Shown piece after piece: positions 18,462 to 37,454 of a DNA stretch of 49,564 nucleotides. The notes under the pieces are model-generated. The model was not told the DNA's origin. It was given only the letters and a program-made list of their open reading frames with translations, and did not search any database. Numbering within the stretch: the first letter of the stretch is position 1; the number at the start of each line of letters is the position of its first letter. This stretch comes from Promethearchaeota archaeon (GTDB lineage: Archaea > Asgardarchaeota > Lokiarchaeia > Sigyniarchaeales > SOKP01). A program made the position numbers and the translations under genes. Where the stretch lies: NCBI GenBank assembly GCA_029838195.1, contig JALGVJ010000027.1:1-49564 (forward strand), in the 5' to 3' direction.

Positions 18462-18875
18462 ATGGTAAAAGCACTACAAGATATTTGGATCTTAACGGAT
18501 ACTGGGACCACATTATTTAGCAGGGTGTTTCATGAGAAATTACCCGATCAATTTTTCGGTGCATTAATGTCTGCGCTCAATAAGTTTGCGGAAGAAATTG
18601 ATAAGGGTGGGTTATCTCATTTTCAAATGCGAAGTAAACAATTTAGCATATTAAAGCAAGAAAATTTATTATTTGTTGCTAGTTCCGATCCTAAAAAAGT
18701 GAGTGAAAAAAAAGCTTTAAATGAATTAAAAAAAATTGCGGCTATTTTTTTTAAAGAATATGGAGAAATAATAAAAAATTGGGATAATGACATTAGCGTG
18801 TTTGAAGGATTTGATAAAAAAATAGAAGAATCTTTAGAGGGGGTCTTAAAAAAGTTCCAAAAAACATTTTGGTAA
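18462..18875 (+). CDS. Longin/roadblock-like small domain protein (Asgard eukaryotic-signature type)
   Basis: 137 aa with the pattern IWIL..TG.TLFSR / DQFFGALMSALNKFAEE / three strands ending LLFVA / C-terminal helices, matching longin-like topology. Confidence 0.65.
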   Translation: MVKALQDIWILTDTGTTLFSRVFHEKLPDQFFGALMSALNKFAEEIDKGGLSHFQMRSKQFSILKQENLLFVASSDPKKVSEKKALNELKKIAAIFFKEYGEIIKNWDNDISVFEGFDKKIEESLEGVLKKFQKTFW

Positions 18876-19614: not shown

Positions 19615-21087
19615 GTGATTTATGATGTCATTATTATTGGAGGCGGCGTAATCGGGTGTAGTATCGCTCGGACTCTTTCTAAATACAATCTAAAGATTGC
19701 ACTCTTAGAAAAAGAAGCAGATATTGCTTCAGGGACGACTAAAGCAAACTCAGGTGTTGTTCATGCGGGATATGCAGCAGAACGACAATATATTAAAAGA
19801 AACCTTTGCATTCGCGGGAATGAATTGTATACCCAAGCGGCAAAGGAATTAAATTTTCCTTTTAAACGAATTGGTTCTTTCGTCGTGGCGTTAGAGGATG
19901 AGCAAATAAAAGATTTGGAAGAAAAGAAGAAACAAGGAACGGAAGATGGAATTCCTGGCTTAGAAGTCATCTTGGATAAAAAAAAAATCTTAGAAATGGA
20001 GCCTAACTTAACGGATCAAGTCGTTGGCGTCTTACATGCCCCTTCTGCTGGAATTGTAAGCCCCTATGAATTAACCTTTGCGTTAGCAGAAAATGCTGCA
20101 ATGAACGGCGTTCAATTTTTCCGAAATCAAGAAGTCATTAAAATTTTGCATCGAGATTACGTGTTTACCATTCACGCGCGAGGCAGTATCTATAAATCTA
20201 ATAATCTAATCAATGCAGCGGGACTTTATGCGGATAAAATTTCTAAGATGCTGGGTTTGGATTATTTCTCGATTTTACCCAGAAAAGGCGAATATATACT
20301 ATTCGATAAAAATGCCCTTCAATTAAGTAAAATTTTATTTCCCATGCCCACGAAAGTTTCGAAAGGGATTTTAGTTTGTCCAACCGTTCACGGAAACATT
20401 TTTGTGGGTCCTAATGCCCAAAATATCACGGATATTGAGGATATTTCAACCACGGAAGCAGGATTAAAAGAAGTACTGGAAGGAGGAAGAACTTTAGTTC
20501 CAAACTTGCCATTAAGGGCGTCCATCAGAAATTTTGCCGGATTGCGTGCCGTACCAGATTCGTACGATTTCATTATTGATAATACCGACATTTATGGATT
20601 TATAAACGTCGCCGGCATTCTCTCGCCAGGTCTTACCTCTTGTTTTGCCATCGCAGAAAAAGTTGTTGATTATCTAGAATTGTTAGGGGTAGAGCTAAAA
20701 GTTAAAGAAAATTATAATCCTTATCGTCCAAAACCTGAACGATTCAAGGATTTTACCAAACAAGAACTCGATAAAAAAATTAAAGCAGATCCAAAATGGG
20801 GAAAAATTATTTGCAGGTGCGAAACCGTGTCTGAACACGAGATTATAGAAGCCATTCACGCCCCCGTAGGTGCTCGAACCATAGATGGCGTAAAATTCCG
20901 ATGCCGTCCCGGAATGGGCAGATGCCAGGGAGGCTTTTGCACTCCCCGCGTCGTCGAGATTCTCTCCCGTGAACTAAACATCCCTTATCATCAAATAACC
21001 AAACGAGGAGACGATACACATGTATTAGTAGGGCTCACGAAAGAATTTCTTTTAGAAGAAAATGAAAAGGAGGAAAAAGAAAAATGA
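19615..21087 (+). CDS. FAD-dependent glycerol-3-phosphate dehydrogenase (L2HGDH/GlpA-like) with BFD-like [2Fe-2S] domain
   Basis: IIGGGVIG, TTKANSGVVHAG, PRKGEY, SPGLT, and C-terminal CRCE...GMGRCQGGFC. Confidence 0.88.
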   Translation: MIYDVIIIGGGVIGCSIARTLSKYNLKIALLEKEADIASGTTKANSGVVHAGYAAERQYIKRNLCIRGNELYTQAAKELNFPFKRIGSFVVALEDEQIKDLEEKKKQGTEDGIPGLEVILDKKKILEMEPNLTDQVVGVLHAPSAGIVSPYELTFALAENAAMNGVQFFRNQEVIKILHRDYVFTIHARGSIYKSNNLINAAGLYADKISKMLGLDYFSILPRKGEYILFDKNALQLSKILFPMPTKVSKGILVCPTVHGNIFVGPNAQNITDIEDISTTEAGLKEVLEGGRTLVPNLPLRASIRNFAGLRAVPDSYDFIIDNTDIYGFINVAGILSPGLTSCFAIAEKVVDYLELLGVELKVKENYNPYRPKPERFKDFTKQELDKKIKADPKWGKIICRCETVSEHEIIEAIHAPVGARTIDGVKFRCRPGMGRCQGGFCTPRVVEILSRELNIPYHQITKRGDDTHVLVGLTKEFLLEENEKEEKEK

Positions 21088-22397
21088 TTCAAGAAGATGT
21101 GGATGTAGTAGTAATTGGAGGGGGCGCAGCGGGATTAGCTGCAGCAATTGAGGTTAAAAAAGCAGGATTGAGCGTGCTTATCTTGGAAAGAGATAGAGAA
21201 TTAGGAGGAATTTTGCTACAATGCATTCACAACGGATTTGGAATAAAAGAATTCAAGGAGGAATTAACGGGACCCGAATATGCTCAAAGATTCATTAATC
21301 AAGTAAAAGAACTCCAAATTCCTTTTAAAATAAATACCATGGTCATAAATATCACGGGAGACAAAAAAGTGTATGCCGTCAATGAACAAGAAGGCCTCAT
21401 GGAAATAAAAGCGAAAGCCATTATCCTTGCCATGGGTTGTCGTGAGCGAACAAGAGGTGCTATTAATATTCCAGGATTTCGCCCGGCAGGAATATTCACG
21501 GCTGGGCAAGCTCAACGATTTGTGAACATGGAAGGGTATTTACCAGGACGATCAATCGTAATATTAGGAAGTGGTGATATAGGAATGATTATGGCACGCC
21601 GGTTAACTTGGGAAGGGTGCAAGGTAAAAGCTGTTGTAGAAATATTGCCGTATGTTAGTGGTTTAATGAGAAATCAAGTTCAATGCCTTGAGGATTATAA
21701 TATCCCTTTAATCACGAGCTATACGGTCACCAAAATTCACGGTAAAGATCGCGTGAAAGGCGTCACAATTAGCAAGGTTGATAGAAATTTTGACCGCATC
21801 ATTGGCTCTGACAAGTTCATTGAATGCGATACCTTATTATTATCCGTTGGACTCATTCCTGAAAATGAACTCACTTTGCAAGCAAATGCAAAATTGTCAT
21901 CAAATGGCGGACCAGTCGTAGATAATAACTTGGAAACTACCATTGAAGGTATTTTTGCGTGTGGAAACGTTCTTCAAGTTCATGATATCGTGGATCTAGT
22001 CACGGCAGAAGCAAAACGAGCTGGAAAAAATGCCGTTGAATATATTAATAAGCGATTTGGTAAGAAAATAGAAGAAAAACGCAAGATTGAGTGCGTTCCC
22101 GGAAGAAATGTGAATTATATCAAGCCCGATTACGTAAATGTTAGTGATTTTTCTAAAGATATCATATTCACGTTTCGAGTAAGAGAACCAGGGACTCGTC
22201 AATTAATTCAAGTAAAAGATCACGAAAATAACGTGATCTATAAACGGAATAAAGTACACGTGATTCCTAGCGAAATGATAGAATTAAAACTAAATCTGGA
22301 AAAAATTAGGGTAAATCCTGAATGTGACCGATTGGAAATTGAAGTCATACCTCGCCCTGAAGTATTAATTGAAGAGGAGGTAAATAATGAGAGGTGA
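21084..22397 (+). CDS. NAD(P)/FAD-dependent oxidoreductase, partner subunit of the G3PDH module
   Basis: GGGAAG, GGILLQCIHNGFG, ELTGPEY, AMGCRER, GSGDIG, FACGNVLQVHD; ATGA overlap with the upstream gene. Confidence 0.9.
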   Translation: MIQEDVDVVVIGGGAAGLAAAIEVKKAGLSVLILERDRELGGILLQCIHNGFGIKEFKEELTGPEYAQRFINQVKELQIPFKINTMVINITGDKKVYAVNEQEGLMEIKAKAIILAMGCRERTRGAINIPGFRPAGIFTAGQAQRFVNMEGYLPGRSIVILGSGDIGMIMARRLTWEGCKVKAVVEILPYVSGLMRNQVQCLEDYNIPLITSYTVTKIHGKDRVKGVTISKVDRNFDRIIGSDKFIECDTLLLSVGLIPENELTLQANAKLSSNGGPVVDNNLETTIEGIFACGNVLQVHDIVDLVTAEAKRAGKNAVEYINKRFGKKIEEKRKIECVPGRNVNYIKPDYVNVSDFSKDIIFTFRVREPGTRQLIQVKDHENNVIYKRNKVHVIPSEMIELKLNLEKIRVNPECDRLEIEVIPRPEVLIEEEVNNER

Positions 22398-22401
22398 TTA
22401 A

Positions 22402-22797
22402 ATGATGGAAGCATGTAAAACTGACGTTATTGCCGAAATTCGATGCATCGTGTGTCCGACGGGCTGTTTGATTCAAGTAAAGAAAGATGAAGAGGGAAAT
22501 ATCACTTTTTCCGGATACGCGTGTAATCGAGGATTAGAATATGCCAAGCAAGAATTCCATGAACCAAAGAGAATTTTGACCTCGACAATGCGAGTAGAAA
22601 ATGGTTTTTTACCATTAATTCCCGTGCGATCGGATAAACCCATTTTAAAAGAAAGAATATTTGATGCGCTGAAAGAAATTGCCAAGAAAAAAGTTAAACC
22701 TCCCATACATGCAGGCGATATACTAATAGAAAATATTTTAGATTTAGGAATAAATATCATAGCAAGTCGCGATTTGGATAAAAGCCACGAGAAATAA
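22402..22797 (+). CDS. DUF1667 small Fe-S/metal-binding subunit
   Basis: CIVCPTGC...C.RG.EYA.QE..P.R.LTST; usual third gene of this module. Confidence 0.87.
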   Translation: MMEACKTDVIAEIRCIVCPTGCLIQVKKDEEGNITFSGYACNRGLEYAKQEFHEPKRILTSTMRVENGFLPLIPVRSDKPILKERIFDALKEIAKKKVKPPIHAGDILIENILDLGINIIASRDLDKSHEK

Positions 22798-22846
22798 GGA
22801 AGTAAAGAAAAAAATGAACCCGAAAGGGAATGTGGTCTAATCTATC

Positions 22847-23290
22847 ATGATTTATATCTTTAAAGTCCACGAGAATTTATATCTGGGAGGGTATTGGCCT
22901 GATTTCAACCTTCAAAAATTAAAAGAAATAGGCATTACCGCTATTGTTAATTTAATGGAAGAAAATTTATATGATCCTCGATCTCATGGTTTTTTTTATA
23001 AATATAAAGGATTTCCGGATGATTGGTATGTTCCGCACGAGTATTTGGACGAGATTCTAGAATTTATTGACACTCACGTGGAATTGGGAAAAGTTTTAGT
23101 TCATTGCGCTCGAGGCATTAGTAGGAGTGGGGGCGTCATCATTGCATGGTTAATGAAGAAATATCCACATTGGACCTGGCGTGATGCTCATGAATTTGTC
23201 AACCAATCGAGATTGGTTTTTCCCTCGATAGAGATCAAGGAATCAATTCTAGAGTATTTTGAGGCACGAGAAGGAAAGAGAAGGGAATGA
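22847..23290 (+). CDS. Dual-specificity phosphatase (DSP), copy 1
   Basis: NLYLGG, GITAIVNL, FPDD acid loop, VLVHCARGISRS (CX5R). Confidence 0.92.
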   Translation: MIYIFKVHENLYLGGYWPDFNLQKLKEIGITAIVNLMEENLYDPRSHGFFYKYKGFPDDWYVPHEYLDEILEFIDTHVELGKVLVHCARGISRSGGVIIAWLMKKYPHWTWRDAHEFVNQSRLVFPSIEIKESILEYFEAREGKRRE

Positions 23291-23399
23291 TATTTGTTTT
23301 TTAAAAGAACGGGATGATGTATAAATAATTATAAAAAACTTGGTTTTTAGATTATATGATTTAATTATTAAATTTAATTTAAGTTAGAGTAGGAGAAAT

Positions 23400-23864
23400 T
23401 TGGAAGAATTGGATGACATTCATGAGGTACACGAAAATATTTATATTGGTGCGTATTGGCCGCAATTAAACTTTAAGAAAATGAAAAAATTAGGGATTCG
23501 GGCTATAATCAATGTAATGGAAGAGAGCTATTATGATCCCCGGTCAGAGGGATTCCAATACTTGCATGAGGGGTTTCCGGATAATAAAAATATCCCTCAT
23601 GAAAGCTTAGAGAAGATTTTGGACTTCATGGATTACCATCTAAGGCGAGGGAATAAGGTTCTAATACATTGCTCTCAAGGGTTATCTCGAAGTCCTGGAG
23701 TTGCTATTGCCTGGTTATTGAAAGAACATTCTGAATGGTCTTGGAATGATGCGTTTGAGCATGTTAATCGATCTAAGCAAATATTTCCTGCCATAGAAAT
23801 ACGAAAATCGATATTGGATTATTTAGAATCTATTGAAGGATATCGTAGAGAGATTAAAAAATAA
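23400..23864 (+). CDS. Dual-specificity phosphatase (DSP), copy 2
   Basis: TTG start after AGGAG; NIYIGA, FPDN, VLIHCSQGLSRS; clearly paralogous to the upstream gene. Confidence 0.92.
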   Translation: MEELDDIHEVHENIYIGAYWPQLNFKKMKKLGIRAIINVMEESYYDPRSEGFQYLHEGFPDNKNIPHESLEKILDFMDYHLRRGNKVLIHCSQGLSRSPGVAIAWLLKEHSEWSWNDAFEHVNRSKQIFPAIEIRKSILDYLESIEGYRREIKK

Positions 23865-23974
23865 TACTTGTCATCAAGTTAATTTACATGTTTCATGATT
23901 TTTTCTATTATATTACGTGAAAAATTGATGCTCCCCTTAACTTTAGATGTAATAACAGGTTTTTTTTAAACACG

Positions 23975-26308
23975 ATGGACGGAGAAAAAAGAGTTCTTAA
24001 CGTATTAATAGCGGGCCACGCGCAAGCGGGAAAGTCGTCTCTTATAGAGGCGATTGTAGGCATCTTTCCCGATCATTTAAGTTTTGAAATCACGCGAGGT
24101 ACTACTATTACCTTGAAGGTTATTCAATTTTCCCTCCCTTCCAAAAAGATACTATTGAATTTCTTAGATAGCCCTGGGCATGCTGATTTTAAAGGAGGAA
24201 TTGCTCTGGGTTTAGAATTTGCTGATCTTTTAGTACTTGTTGTATCGGGAAAAGAAGGTTTTCAAGCAAGAACATACTGGTTATTTGAAAAAGCTACGGA
24301 AAAAAGAATCCCCATTATTATAGCAGCAACAAAAATGGATCTCCCTCAAGCTTCTATTGAAAGAATCGCTTCTCATGTTAAAACCATGTCTTCAAAACCA
24401 ATATCCATTATTCCAACTTCAGCGAAAAATAAAACGGGAATGGAAAATTTAGTGGAAAAAATCACGCTCTACATGAAAAAGCGGGAAAAAATCGATTTAG
24501 ATCCTGGTTTTATAATTTTAGGTTTTAAATATCAAAAAGGTCTGGGAGTGTTGATTAATGCCGGCTTACTCTCTGGTAGAATCGAAAGAGGTTGGTTAAC
24601 CAACGAAATTAAAATCCGGCAAATCTTTTCAATGAATAATTCTCCGCTTGTAGAAGCGAAGGAAGGGGATATCGTTTACCTTTTATTAAATATCGAAAAA
24701 AAATTTCCATTAGGCACGATTTTTAAAAAGGGCAAGTTTATTCCTCCTCTTGTTAATAGTTTATTATCGGAAATCAAACCTAGAAAAGAATTCTCCATCA
24801 AGATAAAAGAACAAGAAAAGCAAGCCATCGCAATAGAAATATTAGAACAACTAAAAACCGTTATTCCTTCTTTTGATTTTTACTCTGATAAAGACAGCAT
24901 TAATATCATGGTGTTAGGCAATTTACAATTTGATTTTATTCGAGAACAACTTGAAAATTTAATAGAATTCAAGATTATTGGCTCTAAAATTAAAGGGATC
25001 ATCACGATTAACCAAGCAAGCACGGGAAGGCACGGCTCAGCCCACGTTCGAATCATCCCTCGATGCAAGAAACTCTTGACCATTTCTAGATTAGGCGTAA
25101 AAAGTGATAAATTGCACGACCTCTTGGGAGCAACTGCTGCCTTTGAAGCATTTCACTTGGATGGATTGCACGTGGATATCTTTTCCGGAAAAAATGAGGA
25201 TGATATTGCCCAGGCAATCGTAAATGCCATTGAAAAAGTTAAAATCATTAAAATTGTTCCCCATCAAGATGTTTTAGTAAAAATAGAAAATTTTAATGCG
25301 CTAGCATCTTTAATAGAGAAATATGAAATTGAAATCCTCCATCAAACCCCCACTAAATCTTTTTTCCTCCAAATAAAGAATGAATTTTTTGAGGATTTTT
25401 TTAACGCTTTAATGAAAATATCAAAAGGAAAGGCAGAGCTTCGATTATTTAAATTTGATCAAAATGACATGATCTTATCCGTGGATCCAGGAACACGTCA
25501 TTTGGGATTTTCTTTAATTGAAAAAAATGAGCTACCTTCTCTTTGGAAGATAAATTTTAAACATGAAATTACTAATATCAAAACGCAGAAAGCCGCAAAA
25601 ATAAAGTTAAAGAAAGAACTCGATATCTTTTTAGATGCTCAAAAAGATTTCATTACCAAAATTTTCATTGGAAATGGCCCGGGTTCTCAATTCCTAATGG
25701 ATTTTTTCAAGGACTATTTTAATCTTTCTCAAGAAAAACCAAACATTAATTCAATTAATGAAAAAGAAGCAAAGCCTCCCATGAAAGAAAAACCTCTTGG
25801 ATCAAATCATTTCTCACTTTCCTTTAAACCTCCTCAGATTTATTTGGTGGATGAATATAAAACAACCAAAGAGGCCATGTATCACCTCCAAGGAGGACAC
25901 CTAATTAGTGAAGTAAAGAGCAAGGATTTCGTAGATCATGCCATCGCAGCTTTACTCATTGCCAAGAGAGGATTAAAGGGAGAAATCTTGAAAATTGAAA
26001 AAAAACCCATTCAGCAATTACAAGAATACATCATCGAACATTATACCGGCTCGTTTTCCTTTTCTCGCATGCGAGTGAATGCCTTAGAGGAGCTCAAAGC
26101 CGGAATGTACTTAAAAGTAATAGATGCTTCAAAATTAGATTCATCCCTAAAAAATGGAGATGTCATTTCATTTATTGCCATGGATCATGGCTCTAACGCT
26201 CTTCATGCTAAAAATCTTCTCGGAAATAAAATCATGGTGAAGTTTCAAGGAGGCGTGAAAATTAAAAAAGAATTTTTTAATATCCTGACCCCCGTTAAAC
26301 AAAAATAA
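23975..26308 (+). CDS. EF-G-like translational GTPase fused to a YqgF/Tex-like RNase H-fold domain
   Basis: G1 GHAQAGKS, G2 RGTTI, G3 DSPGH, G4 TKMD, G5 SAK; EF-G domain III/IV/V-like segments; then ILSVDPG, IGNG, LVDEYKTT, VDHAIAALLIA. Confidence 0.8.
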   Translation: MDGEKRVLNVLIAGHAQAGKSSLIEAIVGIFPDHLSFEITRGTTITLKVIQFSLPSKKILLNFLDSPGHADFKGGIALGLEFADLLVLVVSGKEGFQARTYWLFEKATEKRIPIIIAATKMDLPQASIERIASHVKTMSSKPISIIPTSAKNKTGMENLVEKITLYMKKREKIDLDPGFIILGFKYQKGLGVLINAGLLSGRIERGWLTNEIKIRQIFSMNNSPLVEAKEGDIVYLLLNIEKKFPLGTIFKKGKFIPPLVNSLLSEIKPRKEFSIKIKEQEKQAIAIEILEQLKTVIPSFDFYSDKDSINIMVLGNLQFDFIREQLENLIEFKIIGSKIKGIITINQASTGRHGSAHVRIIPRCKKLLTISRLGVKSDKLHDLLGATAAFEAFHLDGLHVDIFSGKNEDDIAQAIVNAIEKVKIIKIVPHQDVLVKIENFNALASLIEKYEIEILHQTPTKSFFLQIKNEFFEDFFNALMKISKGKAELRLFKFDQNDMILSVDPGTRHLGFSLIEKNELPSLWKINFKHEITNIKTQKAAKIKLKKELDIFLDAQKDFITKIFIGNGPGSQFLMDFFKDYFNLSQEKPNINSINEKEAKPPMKEKPLGSNHFSLSFKPPQIYLVDEYKTTKEAMYHLQGGHLISEVKSKDFVDHAIAALLIAKRGLKGEILKIEKKPIQQLQEYIIEHYTGSFSFSRMRVNALEELKAGMYLKVIDASKLDSSLKNGDVISFIAMDHGSNALHAKNLLGNKIMVKFQGGVKIKKEFFNILTPVKQK

Positions 26309-26487: not shown

Positions 26488-26856
26488 ATGTCAGAAAATG
26501 AAAATAAATTAATGCTACTAATGGAAGAGAAAGTCATTAAATTGTTGGAAACGATTAACGGGAAATTGGATAAATTATTAGAATTAGGAGCGGCAACCAC
26601 TACTCCTTCTTTCAAAGCAGGTTCGACCACTATTATCGAACAAAGTGGGAAAAAACCATCGGAGATCGTGCATGAACAAGAAGAGGAAGAACGCTTAAAA
26701 GAAAAACCACCCGTAGAAGGACGACGAGTGTGCCCGCAATGTGGAGGAACCTCATTTAAGGAAGTAGAAGATAAATCGCAAGTAATACATCAAATGGGAG
26801 GCATGAAAATCTACGCTAAAAAGCACATCTGTCGCAATTGTGGGTTTGAGTTCTAA
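26488..26856 (+). CDS. Small protein with N-terminal coiled coil and C-terminal Zn ribbon
   Basis: GGAGG SD; LLETINGKLDKLLEL heptads; CPQC...CRNC. Confidence 0.85.
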   Translation: MSENENKLMLLMEEKVIKLLETINGKLDKLLELGAATTTPSFKAGSTTIIEQSGKKPSEIVHEQEEEERLKEKPPVEGRRVCPQCGGTSFKEVEDKSQVIHQMGGMKIYAKKHICRNCGFEF

Positions 26857-36365: not shown

Positions 36366-37454
36366 CTAAACCTCACGCCATTCTACTCCACAACGCCCAC
36401 ATTTATATTTTTTTCCATATACCCGTGGATAATCAAGAAGAATGTTACTTTTATCGATGGATTCGTAGATCATGTTCTTATCATCTAATCCGCATTTAGG
36501 GCAACGCCTTCTACCAGTCGGTTTTTCAATAGTCAGTACAGATTCATCTAATCTTCCAGGAATGCCAGGAGCTGCCCCAGAGGAGGGTCTGGTTTTAATT
36601 TGTGCTGGTGCAGGAGCTGGTGCAGGAGCTGGAGCCTTCTCTTCTTTTACTTCTGGTTCCGTTAGAGTCGATTCGGAGGGAATGGATTCCTCGACTTTTG
36701 CGGGCTCTTCTTCTACAACTTCCTTTATTTCTGCTTTGGTTTCCGGATGAATTTCTTCTTCCACGGTAGATGGTTCTATTTCTGATTCTGCTCTTAATTG
36801 TACCGCATCAGACTCTTTATAATCCTCTCCCCGCTCAAGAGCAGCAAGAAATTCGGCATCATTTCCCTCTTCAAAAATGACTTCATTTTGAGCACCAGCT
36901 CGTTCTGCATCTAATAATCGTGCCCATTGCCCCGCTTTTACTCTCTCTTTTACATTAGATGCATTTCCATGCCAGATATAAATTTTTGTTCCTAAATCTA
37001 ATACAAAACAATCTTCACTATCAAGGGAATCTTTTGAAAAGGGGACTTGTATCATTTTCATGGCATTAATATCTTCAAATTCTTCCGCACTTACTCTATA
37101 TAATACATTTTTCCACTCAGAAAATCCCGCAAAATCTCCGGTGGAGACATCCTGGAGCATGGTTTTAGCAAGATTTTTTTCAACAATTTTCATGGCTCCC
37201 ATGGAAGATATTAATTTCATGAATTCTGGAGTTTCTTGTCCTTGGTCAATGGTAATTACTTTCGCAGCACCCCCCCTTTCTTGGTCCAATCTTCGAGCTT
37301 CGGAGGCGCCCGTGGTTTTTTCATCCACGCTACATTTGCTTCCGATCCACACGTAAATCGTGTTTTGGTCGTCAAGCAAGTACACGTCGCCAGTACTAAA
37401 GATGGGTTTATTAATCTCCTTTAGTTCTCCTTGGTCAATCATGTATAATTGCAT
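36366..37454 (-). CDS. Two-domain gelsolin protein with acidic/Pro-Ala linker and C-terminal Zn ribbon
   Basis: GDVYLLD..TIYVWIG..CSVDEK...QGQETPEF and LDSEDCFVLD.GTKIYIWHG..SNVKER...EGNDAEF; CPKC...CGRC. Confidence 0.9.
   Translation of the reverse strand: MQLYMIDQGELKEINKPIFSTGDVYLLDDQNTIYVWIGSKCSVDEKTTGASEARRLDQERGGAAKVITIDQGQETPEFMKLISSMGAMKIVEKNLAKTMLQDVSTGDFAGFSEWKNVLYRVSAEEFEDINAMKMIQVPFSKDSLDSEDCFVLDLGTKIYIWHGNASNVKERVKAGQWARLLDAERAGAQNEVIFEEGNDAEFLAALERGEDYKESDAVQLRAESEIEPSTVEEEIHPETKAEIKEVVEEEPAKVEESIPSESTLTEPEVKEEKAPAPAPAPAPAQIKTRPSSGAAPGIPGRLDESVLTIEKPTGRRRCPKCGLDDKNMIYESIDKSNILLDYPRVYGKKYKCGRCGVEWREV
36604..36636 (-). repeat. Short coding repeat encoding (AP)n in the gelsolin linker
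   Basis: GCTGGTGCAGGA twice plus GCTGGAGCC on the + strand. Confidence 0.8.

Follow-up and report, generated by a model that had tools for sequence, protein, structure and literature searches.

A candidate ribosome-associated nuclease: an EF-G-like GTPase joined to a YqgF/RuvX-type module in Asgard archaea and Methanopyrus

The stretch of DNA analysed here, which we call the window, comprises 49,564 nucleotides from a Promethearchaeota archaeon (GenBank assembly GCA_029838195.1, contig JALGVJ010000027.1, positions 1 to 49,564 of the forward strand). At positions 23975-26308 of its plus strand lies a single unbroken frame of 777 codons (gene P0001, taken from the open reading frame (ORF) list and its translation; the stop codon is included in the coordinates), whose product carries a translational GTPase (trGTPase) with domains I to V, followed by an RNase H-fold module with a YqgF-type active site and a small basic barrel. 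An initial annotation, made from the letters of the DNA, had read this gene as a miniaturised EF-G-like GTPase fused to a YqgF/Tex-type nuclease, and all the motifs it quoted were found in the translation at the residues where they had been placed. Full-length relatives of the 777-amino acid (aa) protein span 30-90% identity, and 64 of these sequences, reaching down to 30% identity, are the family sample for the conservation given below. The extent of conservation is alike from domain to domain (0.58-0.71). The AlphaFold model of the full-length protein has a mean predicted local distance difference test (pLDDT) score of 68.9 and is good for the G domain, domains II and III, the nuclease core and the C-terminal barrel.

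The G domain covers aa 1-170 (23975-24484; this and all further features of the gene are on the plus strand). Pfam GTP_EFTU matched aa 5-168 above its cut-off with an E value of 1e-29, and the whole set of translation-factor G motifs that had been announced for about aa 6-168 is present: GHAQAGKS at 14-21, RGTTI at 41-45, DSPGH at 65-69, TKMD at 119-122 and SAK at 149-151. Residues G14, H15, G19, K20, S21, T44 of switch I, D65, G68, H69, K120, D122 and S149 are invariant in the family sample, and the catalytic His69 within DSPGH (G3) is encoded at 24179-24181. Neither a G' nor a G'' insert interrupts the domain. The β-barrel of domain II follows at aa 171-262 (24485-24760), where the VIA alignment is joined by Pfam EF-G_D2 matches on the Methanopyrus orthologues; the VIA fold search placed model residues 1-260/340 on EF-Tu, LepA, IF2 and SelB with Z scores of 23-25. 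With G1 to G5, the catalytic His of DxxGH and a β-barrel domain II in succession, aa 1-262 are those of a trGTPase. In all trGTPases, this His is positioned by the sarcin-ricin loop.

Domain III was assigned to aa 268-340 (24776-24994), with a β-α-β-β-α-β order, IPSF at 297 and G315, based on TetO/TetM/RF3 profile matches, superposition on LepA and hhalign. A profile of aa 170-497 searched against the PDB matched domains II-III of TetO (E 6e-5) and RF3, and a further profile match to TetO/TetM/RF3 domain III was found at E 0.0065. TetM and TetO were the top sequence-profile matches in the PDB, and the LepA profile match covered aa 4-347. When the model was superposed rigidly, residues 1-338/346 fitted LepA (5j8b_z, a ribosome-bound LepA structure; Z 25, 328 residues), EF-G and BipA, and the alignment with LepA over residues 1-338 bears out the absence of a G' insert. 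The top PDB matches of Foldseek were aEF2, LepA, EF-G and BipA, with 600-700 aligned columns. A shortened domain IV with a β3-α-β-α core, which contains STGRHGSAHVRIIP at 348-361, was placed at aa 341-428 (24995-25258) by hhalign to the EFG_IV region, the secondary structure of the model and the family consensus. Domain V, β-α-β-β-α-β with the motif LMKISKGKAEL at 479-489, was placed at aa 429-495 (25259-25459) by hhalign to the EFG_C region and the model secondary structure. The hhalign comparison used the 64 family sequences as the query and 18 EF-G/TetM-like proteins carrying Pfam EFG_III, EFG_IV and EFG_C as the target, and aa 265-497 gave one colinear alignment of 221 columns over domains III-IV-V (probability 94.6%, E 7e-8). 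The segments likened earlier to EF-G domain III, a short domain IV and domain V are thus borne out as one continuous block, and aa 265-497 have domains III and V after domain II as the EF2 family does.

When the protein was scored against NCBIfam, the selB, Tet, EF-G, LepA and IF-2 models scored about equally and all far under their cut-offs, so the protein is a trGTPase that falls outside all named subfamilies. An aEF-2 model was absent from the 25 NCBIfam matches listed, the EF-G models among them stayed below 65 bits against cut-offs of 583-890, and the lepA equivalog reached 61.5 bits against a cut-off of 533.9. No match to the LepA_C domain was found in the family members. By these family models, the protein is neither aEF2 nor LepA/EF4. 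That it is not canonical aEF-2, as the initial annotation had stated, agrees with the lack of a diphthamide-type loop and with a separate, canonical aEF2 in the same genome (C54:46613-48814), which also encodes its own SelB, aEF1A, aIF5B and aIF2-gamma. In a phmmer search within the genome, SelB and aEF1A ranked over aEF2 for the family protein. The SelB-type factor of the genome (G000:C3:30908-32356) scored 256.7 bits, above the NCBIfam selB cut-off of 242.25, which suggests that this Lokiarchaeon uses selenocysteine.

The nuclease module spans aa 496-672 (25460-25990), as assigned by VIA, Foldseek, the ESM Atlas, Pfam RuvX and invariant residues. A separate model of aa 496-777 built with the 64 sequences had a pLDDT of 78, with the core and the barrel above 88. 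In the VIA fold search of the nuclease module against 48,161 chains, the YqgF domain of Tex ranked at the top (3bzc_A, Z 12.9, 126 residues, 3.0 Å), next came D. radiodurans YqgF (7w89, Z 11.8), and then Spt6, phage RuvC, MtRuvX and MOC1; a poxvirus resolvase and the YqgF proteins of B. subtilis and E. coli were also among the matches. Foldseek and the shape search of the ESM Atlas likewise gave YqgF/Tex/RuvC folds for aa 496-672, and the Atlas neighbours of the module were mostly Tex_YqgF proteins. Pfam RuvX matched 18 of the 19 family members searched (E<=1), with a best E value of 8.9e-9, and the precomputed annotation assigns PF03652 to the relatives P0096, P0124 and P0284. The window protein itself showed weak Pfam matches to RuvX (aa 621-662) and RRXRR (aa 497-542), its RuvX score being 15.2-17.8 bits against a gathering threshold of 29.2 bits.

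Ten residues of the module, D504, P505, G506, G566, G568, G570, E627, E633, D654 and H655, are invariant in the family sample. Three of them are the putative carboxylates of the active site: D504 (25484-25486) in ILSVDPG, E627 (25853-25855) in LVDEYKTT, which contains D626/E627, and D654 (25934-25936) in VDHAIAALLIA. In both the full-length and the module models, D504 ends β1, E627 follows β5 and D654 opens the last helix, while the β4 segment IFIGNG (563-568) has no acidic residue and leads into a GNGPG loop. The site of YqgF proteins consists of an Asp on β1, a Glu at the end of β5 (on β4 in RuvC) and an Asp on the last helix (PMC9601230), and the absence of an acidic residue on β4 is also part of the YqgF definition (PMC9601230, PMC3985635). 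Mutation of the same three positions in DrYqgF impairs or abolishes its RNase activity (PMC9601230). Tex, in contrast, does not have the third carboxylate, and confirmation of any nuclease activity was lacking for it (PMC3985635). The RNase H fold with retained acidic residues that had been proposed for aa 500-670 was therefore recovered by the fold searches and by the invariance of D504, E627 and D654. Judged by its modelled fold and its triad, the module is of the YqgF/RuvX type and is predicted to be an intact nuclease.

Between helix 2 and β5 of this fold lies a disordered insert rich in Lys, Glu and Asn (aa 583-620, 25721-25834), recognised by a pLDDT below 50, alignment gaps and a conservation of 0.28. 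It is 38 aa long in the window protein and 35-38 aa in Lokiarchaeia, and shrinks to 0-7 residues in the orthologues of Asgardarchaeia and Methanopyrus. After the module come a basic helical linker (aa 673-705, 25991-26089; assigned from the model secondary structure, net charge +1 to +7) and then the last 72 residues (aa 706-777, 26090-26305), which form a confident small β-barrel in the model (pLDDT ~90), matching the β-rich C-terminal domain expected at first reading. The barrel is basic in every family member: its net charge is +2 to +9 in 64 of 64 sequences and its isoelectric point is about 10, and this holds even for Methanopyrus, whose protein is otherwise acidic. Pfam matched no family to the barrel in 19 members, a protein-atlas feature search with aa 676-777 gave no usable match, and profiles of the C-terminal module found nothing real in the PDB by sequence. 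Foldseek paired the module with an integrase catalytic core plus SH3-like C-terminal domain at a root-mean-square deviation of 15-21 Å, which we did not trust. Stand-alone relatives of the nuclease-barrel module were sought, and only fragments of the same family were found.

To place the family, a maximum-likelihood tree covering the G domain together with domain II (G+II; 35 sequences, 264 columns) was calculated. The tree reproduced the partition into EF1/SelB, IF2 and EF2, which is the tripartite trGTPase tree described by Atkinson in 2015 (PMC4342817). The GTPase-nuclease proteins were monophyletic (support 96/91), with Methanopyrus as the sister of the Asgard sequences (99/99), and the family was sister to LepA, EF-G-like proteins and aEF2 (94/92, just under the starred level). 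Considering this tree together with domains III-V, we read the family not as a chimera but as a distinct lineage that branches deeply within the EF2 family. A chimera of SelB/EF-Tu-like G+II grafted on EF-G domains III-V is not needed, as the tree puts G+II on the EF2-family side.

The distribution of the family was determined with several searches. A word-indexed search returned about 100 clusters at 90% identity; they came from many assemblies, and almost all were full length (735-786 aa). The fusion is thus not confined to this assembly; had it been, the initial annotation would have counted its proposal as refuted. The clusters came from Lokiarchaeota/Promethearchaeota, Hermodarchaeota and Asgardarchaeia, Odinarchaeota labels appeared in a further search, and the named members are annotated only as 'GTP-binding protein'. 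An exhaustive hidden Markov model scan of 1.84 billion representatives gave six full-length clusters at 50% identity plus fragments, and the scores dropped from above 500 bits to 143 bits, where ordinary trGTPases matched with the G domain only. One of the six is Methanopyrus, with M. kandleri AV19 and the isolates KOL6 and SNP6; the AV19 orthologue (AAM02777.1, WP_011019932.1, UniProt Q8TV36) is named 'Translation initiation factor 2, GTPase'. The initial annotation had suggested a survey of Asgard and other genomes for the same architecture. A survey probed with the C-terminal module, which is specific to the family, did find it in 36 of 400 Asgard species genomes, but the family is not Asgard-only, as the cultured M. 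kandleri AV19 demonstrates.

Within the Asgard archaea the gene is missing from 364 of the 400 species genomes, and in the taxonomic family of the window it is present in 33 of 134 genomes. Its presence splits even inside genera (5/10, 11/42 and 2/54). Five genomes of the same taxonomic family that are 98-100% complete were negative even when every candidate was scored, and two of the five belong to a genus where other species carry the gene. Because it is absent from such complete genomes of close relatives, the gene is dispensable. Where present, it is vertically kept and under purifying selection, and it has been repeatedly lost.

In Lokiarchaeia, the gene sits in a conserved slot ordered as DAO/Pyr_redox_2/DUF1667, DSP phosphatase, the GTPase-nuclease gene, a zinc-ribbon ORF, sometimes two ABC exporters, then radical SAM, EMC3-like and GtrA genes. 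The slot holds across 54-70% identity, its upstream side being a G3P-dehydrogenase/DSP-phosphatase block, and the genes around it, in conserved synteny, have metabolic and membrane roles. Near the gene, the Lokiarchaeia loci showed neither integrases nor defence genes nor an antitoxin-like partner. PADLOC-DB 2.0 had no match to the window protein, and two orthologues gave only a weak generic P-loop match to LeoA. The loci of Asgardarchaeia and Methanopyrus have other neighbours than those of Lokiarchaeia, and those of Asgardarchaeia have genes for rRNA/tRNA modification and for aminoacyl-tRNA synthetases in their vicinity. In a 98% complete genome without the gene, both flanks are intact and two unrelated ORFs fill the slot; the syntenic slot of the negative genome was searched for a remnant of the gene and none was found. 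The empty slot of genome G173 holds a 211-aa ORF (L057:6835-7470) with weak BAR matches under the cut-off (BAR_3 E 1.2e-5, FAM92 E 1.9e-5) and an unannotated 152-aa ORF.

The scan of the window for tRNA genes and Rfam families gave none. Read by eye, an A/T-rich TATA-like element (CTTTAGAT) lies about 30 nt 5' of the ATG of the gene (23940-23975) and no clear Shine-Dalgarno sequence is visible before the ATG; the gene may be served by a promoter of its own, with a very short leader. Upstream, positions 19615-23864 encode an FAD-dependent DAO with a BFD-like 2Fe-2S domain, Pyr_redox_2, DUF1667 and then two tandem DSP-type phosphatase paralogues, and relatives have the same three-gene block with one phosphatase directly 5' of the GTPase-nuclease gene. 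The DSP phosphatase was considered as an obligate partner and rejected, as it stays in a 98% complete genome without the GTPase gene. Downstream, positions 26488-26856 encode a conserved zinc-ribbon protein of 106-122 aa (CPxCGG...CxxCG), which has no Pfam match, is acidic and of low complexity in its middle, and is often multi-copy or the C-terminal part of longer ORFs. Since it occurs in 134 of 135 genomes of the taxonomic family with or without the GTPase gene, and on either strand, it was also rejected as a specific partner. Also near the gene are two eukaryote-like signature proteins, a two-repeat gelsolin-domain protein on the minus strand (36366-37454, E 7.5e-30) and a small protein on the plus strand with a weak Fuz/MON1 longin match (18462-18875, E 3e-4), both of which are met again at the syntenic loci of relatives (L018, L021). 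A heliorhodopsin gene (L019:5936-6760) lies immediately 5' of the GTPase-nuclease gene in one relative. In Methanopyrus, a 227-aa ORF without a Pfam match (L001:8229-8912) has a 4-base overlap with the orthologue's stop codon, a sign that the two may be co-transcribed. Genes of dCTP deaminase-like and metallo-β-lactamase-fold proteins lie 3' of this ORF, and no counterpart of it was seen in the Asgard loci.

Based on the domain order and the two conserved catalytic sites, we consider it somewhat more likely than not that the protein is a stand-alone factor, an RNase docked on the ribosome and gated by GTP, which serves a non-essential task in quality control or turnover. The GTP-gated, ribosome-docking RNase put forward in the initial annotation is plausible on this evidence. 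In such a factor, aa 1-495 would act as a compact EF-G/LepA-type GTPase whose GTP form docks at the factor-binding site of the ribosome, and the sarcin-ricin loop, acting through His69, would set off hydrolysis of the GTP. The YqgF nuclease and the basic barrel would hang off domain V, where LepA and BipA bear their own C-terminal domains, and would thereby be delivered into or beside the intersubunit A-site region. There, the predicted metal site of D504, E627 and D654 would cut the mRNA, tRNA or rRNA belonging to a ribosome that is stalled, immature or surplus, and GTP hydrolysis would then free the factor. Ribosome binding, the RNA substrate, the coupling of cleavage to GTP and the biological role are the parts of this scheme that we infer. 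A ribosome-docking nuclease factor is suggested because the whole ribosome-factor scaffold, including its His, and the nuclease site are equally conserved. Since E. coli YqgF is reported to process pre-16S rRNA only within 70S ribosomes (PMC9601230), a YqgF fold can work on ribosome-bound RNA.

Several results weigh against this assignment. AlphaFold confidence is low for aa 340-495, where domains IV and V lie (pLDDT 50-60), and the Pfam models EFG_III, EFG_IV and EFG_C had no direct match to the protein (E<=1). The sequence of the domain IV tip loop, which touches the decoding centre in EF-G, varies across the family. An approximately unbiased test of the G+II tree did not reject a clade of the family with IF2 (p 0.095), so an affinity of this region to IF2 is possible. 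Snu114 of the spliceosome, an EF-G-like GTPase acting off the ribosome, is among the structural matches, and the gene neighbours offer no functional hint. In addition, YqgF homologues of some bacteria cut DNA junctions, as the YqgF/RuvX proteins of M. tuberculosis, M. smegmatis and H. pylori do in vitro (PMC9601230, PMC11466669). A complex predicted between aa 1-497 and the last 45 residues of the aP1 stalk protein encoded in the same genome scored 0.00 and weighs neither way.

Other explanations were weighed against the same evidence. The YqgF fold and the barrel could be an RNA-binding module as in Tex and Spt6, making the protein a non-nucleolytic, LepA/BipA-like ribosome remodeller; LepA and BipA have non-catalytic C-terminal domains at the same position, and the YqgF domain of Tex, a protein for which no nuclease activity had been confirmed, is the best structural match and dominates the Atlas neighbours. 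While Tex is without the third carboxylate (PMC3985635), the family keeps all three together with His655, and because these are invariant down to 30% identity, a working active site is expected. We hold this explanation to be unlikely, although less so than the following ones. In housekeeping maturation, the fused YqgF would trim pre-16S rRNA in assembled ribosomes with the GTPase as a test-drive checkpoint. The reported processing of pre-16S rRNA by E. coli YqgF only in 70S ribosomes, an architecture that would suit a ribosome-bound substrate, and the Asgardarchaeia loci near RNA-modification genes would fit such a role. However, these neighbourhoods are not conserved across lineages, and a core maturation enzyme should not be so dispensable as to be missing from most Asgard species and from five nearly complete genomes of the same taxonomic family, with no remnant in the syntenic slot. 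The role in rRNA maturation that had been offered at first, if taken as an essential one, is weakened by these absences and is improbable, and the dispensability favours quality control, stress or turnover instead.

A DNA-directed enzyme, in which a GTPase that has lost its ribosome binding switches a RuvX-like nuclease for branched DNA or Holliday junctions, would accord with the junction cleavage by bacterial YqgF/RuvX proteins and with RuvC, MOC1 and poxvirus resolvases among the fold matches. Yet conservation of the five-domain ribosome-factor scaffold, including the sarcin-ricin-loop-dependent His, equals that of the nuclease, the active site is laid out as in YqgF and not as in RuvC, and no repair or recombination genes are nearby in the loci examined, which leaves this explanation very unlikely. 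Lower still do we place an antiviral or abortive-infection effector that shuts down translation on a trigger by cutting rRNA, tRNA or mRNA. In its favour, the presence of the gene is patchy even inside genera, and a ribosome-delivered nuclease would presumably make an effective toxin. Against this, PADLOC yielded nothing beyond the generic P-loop match, the gene keeps one stable chromosomal slot in Lokiarchaeia at 54-70% identity, and no integrases, defence genes or antitoxin-like partner accompany it, the adjacent zinc-ribbon ORF being present regardless of the gene; the abortive defence role first suggested thus finds no backing in the loci. Of these explanations, we prefer the GTP-gated, ribosome-docked RNase of quality control or turnover.

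The initial annotation knew of no described fusion of a trGTPase with YqgF, and full-text searches of the literature for the fusion and for the M. kandleri accessions, as well as of the trGTPase census, did not bring one to light either. The 2015 trGTPase census names 57 subfamilies with no mention of a nuclease in its main text, and lists M. kandleri with two extra matches binned as 'IF2, SelB' (PMC4342817). One of these, binned as 'IF2', is probably the orthologue. The proposed activity would stand apart from what is established. To our knowledge, every characterised trGTPase acts by binding and conformational change, and RNA cutting on the ribosome uses a separate, recruited nuclease; the nucleases of archaeal mRNA surveillance and ribosome turnover are, as far as we know, largely unknown. 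If the proposal is true, a ribosome-docking GTPase scaffold with a nuclease would be a new mode of action for the superfamily and could show how some archaea handle stalled or unwanted ribosomes. It is possible, if slightly on the doubtful side, that the family represents the first trGTPase with a built-in catalytic effector, a deep EF2-family subfamily common to Asgard archaea and Methanopyrus that enters the A-site region, cuts RNA under GTP control and performs archaeal RNA surveillance or ribosome disposal in one polypeptide. The idea is directly testable because the cultured hyperthermophile M. kandleri carries an orthologue (Q8TV36).

Among known factors, LepA (EF4) and BipA/TypA resemble the protein in the short G domain without a G' insert, the HxDHGKS-type P-loop, the presence of domains II, III and V, and a C-terminal module, particular to each family, that follows domain V; LepA is the best rigid superposition. 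While LepA and BipA have no domain IV and carry non-catalytic C-terminal domains, the family keeps a short domain IV; they are bacterial or organellar whereas the family is archaeal, and the G+II tree puts it outside the LepA clade. The domain order I-II-III-IV-V and the profile-profile similarity over III-V are shared with EF-G, aEF2 and TetM. Unlike these, the family has no G'/G'' insert, and its domain IV measures only about 88 aa, lacks a diphthamide-type loop and has a tip that is not conserved; none of EF-G, aEF2 and TetM, for their part, carries a nuclease.

The nuclease half is like YqgF/RuvX (PF03652) in its RNase H fold and YqgF-specific triad, with structural Z scores of 10-12 to DrYqgF, MtRuvX and the B. 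subtilis and E. coli YqgF proteins. Whereas bacterial YqgF stands alone as a protein of about 140 aa and is often essential, the fold here makes up the C-terminal portion of a GTPase of 777 aa, with the 38-aa disordered insert in Lokiarchaeia, the GNGPG loop after β4 and the basic barrel. Like its counterpart in Tex, the fold sits within a multidomain, putatively RNA-binding protein and has a small barrel after it (S1 in Tex), and the structural Z score to Spt6 is 10-11. In contrast with Tex and Spt6, Tex_N, HhH and S1 were not detected in the protein and the third carboxylate D654 is kept, so that the similarity is structural only. GTPases and nucleases are also paired as two proteins, namely Hbs1/Ski7/GTPBP1 with the exosome, Era with YbeY, and Nob1 cleavage that depends on eIF5B, and the same logic may apply to the fusion: the GTPase reads the state of the ribosome and the nuclease acts on its RNA. 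Those pairings are made of separate polypeptides from other GTPase and nuclease families, whereas both predicted activities would lie here in one chain.

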